Position numbers: made by a program. Shown piece by piece: positions 1 through 3,000 of a DNA stretch of 18,932 bases (the stretch's first letter is position 1; each line of letters opens with the position of its first letter). Where the stretch lies: IMG/VR virus record IMGVR_UViG_2537561693_000022. One strand, given 5' to 3'. This DNA is from a virus. Taxonomy: Duplodnaviria > Heunggongvirae > Uroviricota > Caudoviricetes.

Positions 1-3000
1 TTGCCTCCCCCCCGTTGATGGGTAAAATAGCCGCAATTTTTCGTTTTCAACAAGCGCGGCGCGATGCCGCTTACTCAAGAAGAAAGAATTATGACGTTGT
101 CTCCTTATTTGCAAGAGGTGGCGAAGCGCCGCACTTTTGCCATTATTTCTCACCCCAATAATTAAGTCTAAATTAAAGCTCTTTTACTTTTTCAAAGTCC
201 TTTCAGTTAATTGATGTTTGGTTTTATAAGTCATTTGAATACAGTTAGTTATGTGGCTTCTTTAATTGAAAATTCTTTCATGTAACTTTAAATCGATCAG
301 GTTGCTTTCATCAAAAATCTGTACATATTTTTGTACATAATGTACAAAGCAGTAGAGGTGTTTTGCGATTTGTACAAGGTGAGTAATGGCGCTGTCTGAT
401 GCGTGGTTGCGTTCAGTCGTTGGAAAGGAACGTGATAAGGTTTTGGTTAAATCCGATCGTGATGGTCTGTCTGTCAGAGTATCACCGAAAGGTCGCGTAG
501 TGTTCCAATATCGTTATCAATGGGCAGGGAAAGGTGAGCGCCTTGATATCGGAACTTACCCGGCAACTGGATTAAAAGAGGCCAGAGAAGAAGTTATCCG
601 TCTCCGTGGTGAACTCGAGTCAAACCGCAATCCACGATTAGTCAAGCAGGCTGAAAAACGAAAAGCTACTGAAGCCATGACGGTAGAGTCTGTGATCCGT
701 GCCTGGTATGAAGCATATTGTGTAAAAAATAAAAAAGGTTCTGAACAGATACTCCGCTCGTTTGAGCTGCACCTGTTCTCTAAAATCGGGAATATCCCTC
801 ACGATGCAGCTACATTGCATGATTGGTTAGAAGTCCTAGAGCCTCTTAGCACCAAGACTCCAGCAATAGTAGACCGATTGCTAATTAACGCAAAGCAGGC
901 TCATGTCTGGGCGTATAAGAGAAAGCTCATTGAAACTCGCCCACTGTCGGATATCACGGGTAAAGATATGGATATCCGTAAAGGTCAGAAAAAACGGTTT
1001 CTGACACATGATGAAATTAGCATCCTTTATGCTGCGATCGATGGTTCTCGAATGGTTCCTAAATACCGAGCCTTCATTAAACTATTGCTGCATTTTGGTT
1101 GCCGTAGTTCAGAGCTAATTACTGCTAGGGTGGATGATTTTGATTTCATAAATAAGGTATGGACTGTACCACCAGAACGACATAAGACTGGGGACATAAC
1201 AGGCGAACCGCTAAAGCGGCCCATTATTGAACCGGTTGAAGAGCTTATAAAATACGTTATCTCTATGAACAACGGTTCCGATATGCTTTTTACTAAGGAA
1301 GGAAGCAGGGAGCCAGTTGGTCGGACATCATTGCAGTCGCTGCCTTACAATTTAATGCAGTTCGCATGGCGACGTTTGGGGTATCAATTTCCTCATTGGT
1401 CTCTTCATGATTTGAGACGAACAGCACGAACAAACTTTTCTGATCTTACTGCGCCTCATATTGCTGAAATAATGCTCGGTCATAAACTGCCAGGGGTATG
1501 GCAAGTTTATGATAAGAGCGATTATCTAGAAGAACAGCGTAAAGCCTATCAGGCATGGTGGGATAGGGTTGAATCGATTCTTACTTACACTAATTTAGGT
1601 TCCAACAGACAGCCTATTGAATAATGAATAGACATACAGAGTAAGAAAATAGTAATGATTCTTGGATTATAATTAACTGATTGCTGATATTTCGATTTGC
1701 CGATTTATGAAGAGACGGTCATTATACTTATAAAAACACCACTCCTTATCCTTACAGAAATAAGGAGTGGAAACAGTTATGGCTGAGACTCTGGTTTAGC
1801 AATCTCGTTTATAAATTTCTTAGCTACAACAGTCTCATACTTTCTATAATCATCAAGATATTGAACATCTATATGATTTTTGTAGCGAGCATTAAATTTA
1901 TTTGCAGCCCCTGTTTTATCATCTTTACGTTCATCCGTTGGTCTGAAAAATTTATGGTAGCGGCGGGGTGATACCCCCTCAAAATCACAAAATATTACTT
2001 TGGAAGATTCTTCGTTCTTTGTTATTGCATCATTATGCAGATCAAGAGCAAGGCTTTTATCAAATGGCTCTATATATACTACTTTTTTTATTCCAGATGC
2101 GACAATATGCCTTGCACAGTTGTGGCAGGGATAGGTTGTCGTAAAAAGAATTTTATCTTTAGTATCGCCGTTTTGTTTTCTAGCCATTGATGTAATGACG
2201 TCCATTTCAGCATGAATTGATCTGGAGTACTCCATTACACTTGATATTTTGCTGTCTTTGTAAATGCCTTCTGCAATATTATCTAATTTGTTTAGAAGTC
2301 GTGTTATATTAATATCGGCAACAGTTTGTCCTGCGGAAATACCTAATACACTTCTTACTTCGGTTGATAATATGCTTTTTATACGGTCTTTAATTTTTAG
2401 CTTGTTTGCATCATTATAACACTTACCACTTTTGTGAACGCATCGATGATCGTTATCAAAATCATCACTGCTATACAACCCGCCACCAGCTTTAGGTACG
2501 TCGTTCTTACCCACGGCAAGCAAATTCCCTTCATCATCAAACAGTGCAGCCCCTACTTGACGTGATAAACAAGCTGATTGTAATGATGTTGAAAAGGCAG
2601 CATACATACCTTTCTCGTTAAAAGTTGGTGTTAAACCATTTTTGCCATGAATAAGACCGAAAAACCGATCAATCTTCTTCTTTAATTCACTTTTTTGGCT
2701 GAAGTTATTTTTAATAAAAAAATCTGAATCAAGAATGGTTTCCCCGGTTCTTTGTCCATACGGATCAGAGGATTTATTATCAATATTGATAATTAAATGA
2801 AGGTCGTCCTTTGCCGATTCGTCAGCAATGAGATTCGGAATTCGGTAATCTAAATCGCGCAAAACTCCTAACAAATAGAAATTATGCTGATATATAACTC
2901 TGAATAACTCTATTTCTTCCGGCCTTTTGAATTGATCAATGATGAAGACAGTACCTTTATATTCATCATTATTATAATCAATATTCTTTTTCGCTGTTGC

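Follow-up and report, generated by a model that had tools for sequence, protein, structure and literature searches.

Replacement of the 5' end of prfC, which encodes the translation factor RF3, by an element that integrates there is already known; it is established for SXT and was noted earlier for Stx and cdt phages. SXT/R391-family elements reportedly integrate at the 5' end of prfC, and the published core of SXT is said to be 17 bp long. At icd, phage 21 and e14 carry a substitute for the 3' end that they displace, and the length of the ORF is kept; because the 3' end is swapped there, promoter and start codon need not come along, whereas the prfC phage described here exchanges the 5' end. 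Prophages of the "active lysogeny" type, such as those inserted in comK and hlb, truncate the target ORF in the lysogen, and it is restored only on excision. A 3'-end duplication with unchanged ORF length has been described in one unnamed example (PMC3603311). SXT/R391 family members possess integrases that are about 99% identical (PMC2791158), and SXT was reported to bring a new promoter for prfC (PMC8409611). For Stx phages and the cdt-I phage, too, prfC is recognised as a place of integration (PMC2323221, PMC10132054, PMC8138268, PMC8065619). Ogura et al. (2007) already noted that a short N-terminal stretch of RF3 is changed by integration, stated that the transcription and translation of prfC after Stx1-phage integration were unknown, and gave prfC as absent from the essential-gene list (PMC2323221). 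No literature on functional prfC expression in phage lysogens was found beyond that study.

The locus compared with these systems lies at the beginning of the window, by which we mean the whole stretch of viral DNA that was analysed (18,932 nt; IMG/VR record IMGVR_UViG_2537561693_000022). The window is E. coli DNA, with its first 1700 nt 100% identical to strain Ec-U11 and positions 1–18263 identical at 99.8%. Alignment with K-12 MG1655 showed that the upstream region of prfC and its first 22 codons (65 nt of prfC) correspond to window 1–155 with 100% identity; the match ends at nt 156, and the DNA beyond is AT-rich (~37% GC over the first 400 nt). What is left of the host gene is a 24-aa ORF on the + strand (91–165), composed of the native start, 22 native codons, two phage codons and a stop. 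Codon 22 remains Pro across the junction (CCC versus native CCG) and is followed by AAT AAT TAA. PGAP labels the equivalent of 91–165 in Ec-U11 as a partial pseudogene. The Ec-U11 junction comes directly after rsmC-holD-rimI-yjjG, as does prfC in K-12, and this shared gene order, together with the identity of 1–155 to K-12, identifies 91–155 as a genuine host remnant and not a phage decoy.

These results bear out most of the preliminary description of this DNA. Its account of the frame, which was said to diverge at nt 156 after 22 codons and to stop two codons later, was exact by translation and K-12 alignment, and its view of a prophage inserted in the 5' coding region of prfC was right, as supported by K-12 identity, synteny and the att core. 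The window does open with a predicted prfC promoter, as had been proposed: the K-12 upstream region is identical and includes a predicted sigma-70-like match, TTGCCT-16-TAAAAT (1–28, + strand), with a PWM score of 12.6 in a consensus scan. One point needed correction, namely that the split fell before the GTPase P-loop; the break is actually inside the G1 motif, SHP/DAGKT, between Pro22 and Asp23. Alignment with the uninterrupted allele, suggested in that description as a way of finding the att core, defined a core of 14 bp, ATTATTTCTCACCC (142–155), as the crossover region covering RF3 codons Ile18-Ile19-Ser20-His21-Pro22. In the three-way alignment, attL agreed with attB on the left side of the core and attR did so on the right side, and only ATTATTTCTCACCC was identical across attB, attL and attR. 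Judged from its sequence, window 1–385 is the attL of a cdtI/2H10-type lambdoid prophage in the 5' coding region of prfC.

The far junction was read from near-identical prophages in other genomes, the window's own attR lying outside the window, and it is found about 31–50 kb from attL. In Ec-U11, ATTATTTCTCACCC recurs downstream at 30,929 bp core to core, and the order there is phage DNA, ATG plus 21 phage codons, the core and the remainder of prfC. The sequence is ...AATTATG ACA AGC CTT TTG GCC GCA GAG GTA GCG AAA AGA AGA ACC TTT GCA, followed by the core and GGACGCCGGTAAG... The resulting ORF is in frame, 528 aa long and annotated by PGAP as intact prfC, and it scores 1087 bits against TIGR00503, the prfC equivalog, over model positions 5–527 of 527. 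Compared with the native protein, residues 2–8 are replaced (TLSPYLQ by TSLLAA) and the chimera is one residue shorter. The preliminary description had asked whether a start and a promoter are reconstituted at the far end; an in-frame start and 5' end are indeed rebuilt in the Ec-U11 attR, and for the promoter the region upstream of the phage ATG offered weak sigma-70 candidates only. With prfC rebuilt at attR, the idea that lysogens would lack functional RF3 is not supported. Going by the coding sequence, the RF3 encoded in lysogens of this type is a full-length chimera of 528 aa. The Ec-U11 prophage itself measures only 30.9 kb, and a truncated tail-tip pseudogene adjoins a small DUF6148 gene and the large terminase gene (Ec-U11 locus 24288–27356); it has thus lost most head and tail genes and is probably a defective copy. 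Even so, its two att junctions are preserved and its chimeric prfC is intact.

The recombinase responsible is probably encoded directly beside the junction. The gene starts 230 nt past the break, runs in the same direction as the remnant and encodes a tyrosine integrase of 412 aa (386–1624, + strand; ORF list, Pfam and tblastn). Its arm-binding, central and catalytic domains (PF13356, Arm-DNA-bind_3; PF22022; PF00589) all scored above the gathering threshold, and the protein shares 96–98% identity with its counterparts in phages cdtI, 2H10 and Ayreon, and 97–98% with those of cdtI and 2H10 (tblastn). The phage P' arm with the int upstream region (156–385) carries four TGTACA-type repeats at 320, 332, 341 and 371, that is, four sites in 57 bp compared with ~4 expected by chance across the whole 18.9-kb window. 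The P arm at attR adds three more TGTACA repeats, close upstream of the prfC start that the phage carries (Ec-U11 locus ~16620–16665). In total, the core has seven TGTACA-centred repeats on its two sides (TTGTACATA / ATGTACAA), and in other attP variants the P arm contains a fourth. Seven sites beside the core and an arm-binding domain in Int make arm-type Int sites the simplest reading, and the repeats are likely candidates for this role. The same repeats overlap the sole promoter candidates for int and for the chimeric prfC.

The phage-borne codons showed signs of constraint on the protein. Across EVAKRRTFA, nine codons directly 5' of the core, 8 of 27 nt differ from native prfC and all eight differences are synonymous; none of 200,000 random 8-substitution variants of the segment kept the peptide. 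Purely synonymous divergence argues for constraint on the protein and not on a DNA-binding site. Alternatively, the pattern could have been inherited from the prfC of another bacterium before the phage captured it by aberrant excision, and the similar RBS/start context (ACAATTATGAC versus AGAATTATGAC) hints at such a capture from a bacterial prfC. The replaced residues 2–8 lie mostly outside the TIGR00503 family model, and this N-terminal stretch is variable in nature too, the attL remnants showing MSNSPFLQ.. for the RF3 orthologue of Xenorhabdus and MTKQAA.. for that of Pseudomonas. Four attP/attR variants, one of which has another gene further upstream, hardly differ in the mimic, its ATG or the P arm back to ~170 bp upstream of the core.

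The same module was found in free phages and in many E. coli chromosomes. When the two arms were joined, the reconstructed attP was contiguous in the free phages 2H10 and cdtI at ~97% identity and aligned over 82% of its length in Ayreon, and in all three phages attP encodes the RF3 mimic just upstream of int. In Stx1a/Stx2c phage records of clonal complex 119, ATTATTTCTCACCC is annotated as "duplication due to insertion". The cdtI, 2H10 and Ayreon phages and the prfC Stx1a/Stx2c phages (O103:H2, CC119) therefore resemble the window phage in Int, attP, mimic ORF and 14-bp core, but the cargo differs, a dCTP-deaminase defence gene standing beside int in the window instead of stx or cdt. Among complete E. 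coli genomes, attL with int was found in 699 of 5426 and attR in 692, and ~13% had both junctions. In each of the five listed lysogens with full coverage, the attR query matched one place per record, which is annotated as prfC; these lysogens thus seem to have no prfC body other than the rebuilt one. More distant Int relatives at 51–84% identity (Salmonella, Xenorhabdus, Pseudomonas and the betaproteobacterium Acidovorax) all come directly after a prfC remnant with the same end residue. A three-domain Int, insertion at the I-I-S-H-P codons and a frame-restoring N-terminus at the other junction were thus all present in the prfC module, and both gene order and matching free phage genomes assign the element to the lambdoid temperate phages of cdtI/2H10 type. 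The gene order, as annotated by RefSeq in the 99.8%-identical Ec-U11 prophage, is int-xis, a LexA-family repressor with a divergent cro-like HTH gene, replication, RusA, a Q-type antiterminator, holin/lysozyme/spanin and terminase. Wider searches added little diversity. An IMG/VR scan with the Int protein returned only prophages at 96–100% identity, mostly cut at the int start, and no diverse attP; a second IMG/VR scan with a degenerate prfC P-loop pattern found attL and three attR junctions, nearly all of E. coli type, and no new mimic variants. Among PLSDB plasmids, tblastn with Int gave three near-identical records (one a 4.9-Mb E. coli sequence) and otherwise integrases of at most 27% identity.

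A prfC-phage integrase was previously grouped in the same cluster as IntSXT (PMC8138268), and the two systems share their strategy. Like the window phage, SXT/R391 elements (Hochhut & Waldor, 1999) recombine within the 5' end of prfC, with a crossover at the same codons, and supply an N-terminus of their own. When the published SXT right-end primer was used as a probe, 35 species showed an element-borne N-terminus joined to DAGKT...; at these right ends the element sequence is constant to ATCATCTC and host variation starts within TCN CAC CCN, which places the SXT/R391 crossover, as derived here from sequence, in the Ile-Ile-Ser-His-Pro codons. SXT-type attL sites, found with the left-end primer, show host-specific native N-termini and then element DNA. 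In contrast, the mimic peptide of SXT/R391 is unlike that of the window phage, and the SXT-type Int is only ~38% identical to the window Int (tblastn). The SXT int converges on the prfC remnant from a distance of 0.5–2.7 kb, whereas the window int is co-directional with it and 230 bp from the core. Finally, SXT/R391 is a conjugative element of ~100 kb and the window belongs to a lambdoid phage. IntSXT, sought with primer-derived peptides, was absent from the top 120 Int protein homologues. Membership of the window element in the SXT/R391 family was rejected, given the ~38% Int identity and the lambdoid phage genes in its neighbourhood. The gene-disrupting "active lysogeny" class was rejected as well, as the chimeric prfC is intact at attR in lysogens.

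Considering these results, we have proposed a probable model for prfC integration, in which Int recombines the 14-bp core ATTATTTCTCACCC within the P-loop-coding part of the gene. Just upstream of the core, attP carries a region for ribosome binding, then an ATG and 21 codons imitating the N-terminus of RF3. Integration leaves a dead 24-codon remnant behind the native promoter at attL and fuses the phage-borne 5' end in frame to prfC codon 23 onward at attR. The phage presumably also brings the promoter for the chimeric gene, placed in the ~120 bp before the new ATG; transcription would probably differ in level from that given by the native promoter and would likely be lower, and the chimeric RF3 is predicted to be functional. 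We put the probability of this scheme as a whole, with attL, attP and attR and a phage-borne 5' end rebuilding prfC, at roughly 0.85.

Three other explanations were weighed against it. That 91–155 is a phage-borne decoy of the prfC 5' end, with an undisturbed prfC elsewhere, was the possibility named in the preliminary description as fatal to its own reading, and it has practically no chance of being correct. The phage does hold a prfC-like 5' segment, yet it lies at the other end and differs in both nucleotide sequence and N-terminus, whereas window 1–155 matches K-12 completely, including the intergenic region, within the yjjG-rimI-holD-rsmC synteny; in the listed lysogens the sole prfC body abuts the prophage at attR. 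The decoy reading was refuted by the K-12 identity and synteny. Insertional inactivation, by which prfC would be disrupted and lysogens left lacking RF3, is very improbable. It has in its favour that the body of the gene is cut off from its own promoter, from the RBS and from the first 22 native codons, and Bobay et al. (2013) listed prfC among genes "disrupted" by prophages (PMC3603311). However, the phage-borne ATG and 21 codons restore a 528-aa ORF with a full-length prfC score, prfC is annotated as intact in the sampled lysogens, and the mimic differs from the native codons by synonymous changes only. The intact ORF at attR contradicts the "disrupted" listing of Bobay et al. (2013) at the level of the ORF.

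An intact ORF is no proof of expression, because transcription and translation after integration were left as unknown by Ogura et al. (2007). The rebuilt ORF might be effectively silent or strongly down-regulated, which would make lysogens RF3 hypomorphs, and we consider this unlikely. A simple scan of the prfC strand detected no sigma-70 consensus upstream of the phage ATG; the best PWM candidates were TTTTCT-17-CATAAT (7.1) and ATGCTC-16-TACAAT (6.0), compared with 12.6 for the native promoter, and these weak candidates overlap the three P-arm TGTACA repeats, where Int may bind. A DinI-like gene at attR is divergent from the chimeric prfC (Ec-U11 locus 16755–16813 and 16814–17062), so it cannot drive prfC and gives no read-through into it. 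The mimic contains two rare AGA codons, and a dusA-specific integrative element, IMEVchUSA3, for which post-integration expression was followed by lacZ fusion, left its target expressed below the native level (PMC8409611), although both the target gene and the element type are unrelated to the prfC phage. Against silence stand the conservation of the mimic, its start codon and ~170 bp upstream across phage lineages, the ~13% of E. coli genomes that have this arrangement with prfC annotated as intact, and the precedent of SXT, whose crossover falls in these codons too and for which a supplied promoter has been reported (PMC8409611). Under the rebuilt-gene scheme, conservation and precedent argue for expression of the chimeric prfC, and its level may well differ from the native one. 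After integration, the predicted native promoter faces the remnant ORF and int. No intrinsic terminator was predicted between it and int (window 1–386), so with promoter and gene co-directional, read-through from the host promoter into int is possible.

A parallel at another gene was provided by Gifsy-1 and SPN3UB, whose integrases are 46–47% identical to the window Int and whose target is not prfC but lepA, a paralogous translational GTPase gene. In the SPN3UB attP, 246 nt upstream of int (SPN3UB locus 955–996), an ATG and 13 codons, MKNIRNFSIIAHID, encode the LepA N-terminus in amino acids, with 7 synonymous and 0 non-synonymous codon differences from K-12 lepA. This mimic ends in the G1/P-loop codons homologous to the prfC core, and the end of the Gifsy-1 record (locus 1–21) carries the host version of the lepA core. 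The lepA core is ~17 bp, ATCATTGCTCACATCGA, compared with 14 bp for the prfC phage, and the phage side of the core is alike in the two systems (..ATAATTAA versus ..ATAATTGA). The matching lepA and prfC mimics indicate that members of one integrase clade attach at the DNA coding for I-I-[S/A]-H in either of two paralogous translational GTPases. The window Int, at prfC, is nearer to the Gifsy-1-type Int at lepA (46–47%) than to the SXT Int at prfC (38%). Moraxella phages with 40% Int identity were considered and discarded, having no GTPase 5' mimic upstream of int. No searchable paper was found that names Gifsy-1, lepA and prfC together; the parallel may still be published.

A wider reading is that this Int clade reads G1/P-loop (I-I-[S/A]-H) DNA and has switched between paralogous targets with co-evolved mimics, and that RF3 dosage depends on the state of the prophage. 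Taken jointly, these proposals are tentative and on balance rather unlikely. Integration would swap upstream regions, the host prfC promoter passing to int and RF3 passing to a phage arm with putative Int sites. RF3 would also now adjoin a dinI-like promoter bearing LexA boxes: the upstream region of the dinI-like gene contains two LexA-box-like palindromes of the form CTG-N10-CAG, CTGTATGAATAAACAG and CTGTGTTTGTATACAG, and a TTGACA-18-AAAAAT promoter match. A putative SOS-regulated promoter thus lies ~150–200 bp from the rebuilt prfC start. RF3 dosage could in this way track prophage state, and if so, termination fidelity could depend on it as well.

The locus corrects a tempting misreading, in which a prophage visibly cuts a translation-factor gene and a knockout is assumed, when in fact a replacement 5' end is brought along. 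This is relevant to annotation pipelines and pan-genome studies, in which ~13% of E. coli genomes are scored as having a "disrupted" prfC, and to work on termination fidelity in such lysogens, which include STEC, EPEC and commensals. It is also a clear example of how an extremely conserved GTPase P-loop coding segment can serve as a portable attachment site, apparently at no fitness cost to the element.

Two further genes were noted beside the integration module. A candidate excisionase of 64 aa (3913–4107, − strand) was assigned tentatively from a sub-gathering HTH_17/MerR-type match, and its placement is analogous to that of xis beside int in SPN3UB. In the window this candidate is parted from int by an inserted defence gene. 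That gene encodes an anti-phage dCTP deaminase of 531 aa (1777–3372, − strand; PADLOC dCTPase, E=1.6e-163; Pfam dCMP_cyt_deam_1) and comes immediately after int, and the best-match annotations of other prfC prophages list an AIPR-family gene instead. These annotation lists suggest that the place beside the integration module may be a variable one for defence cargo.
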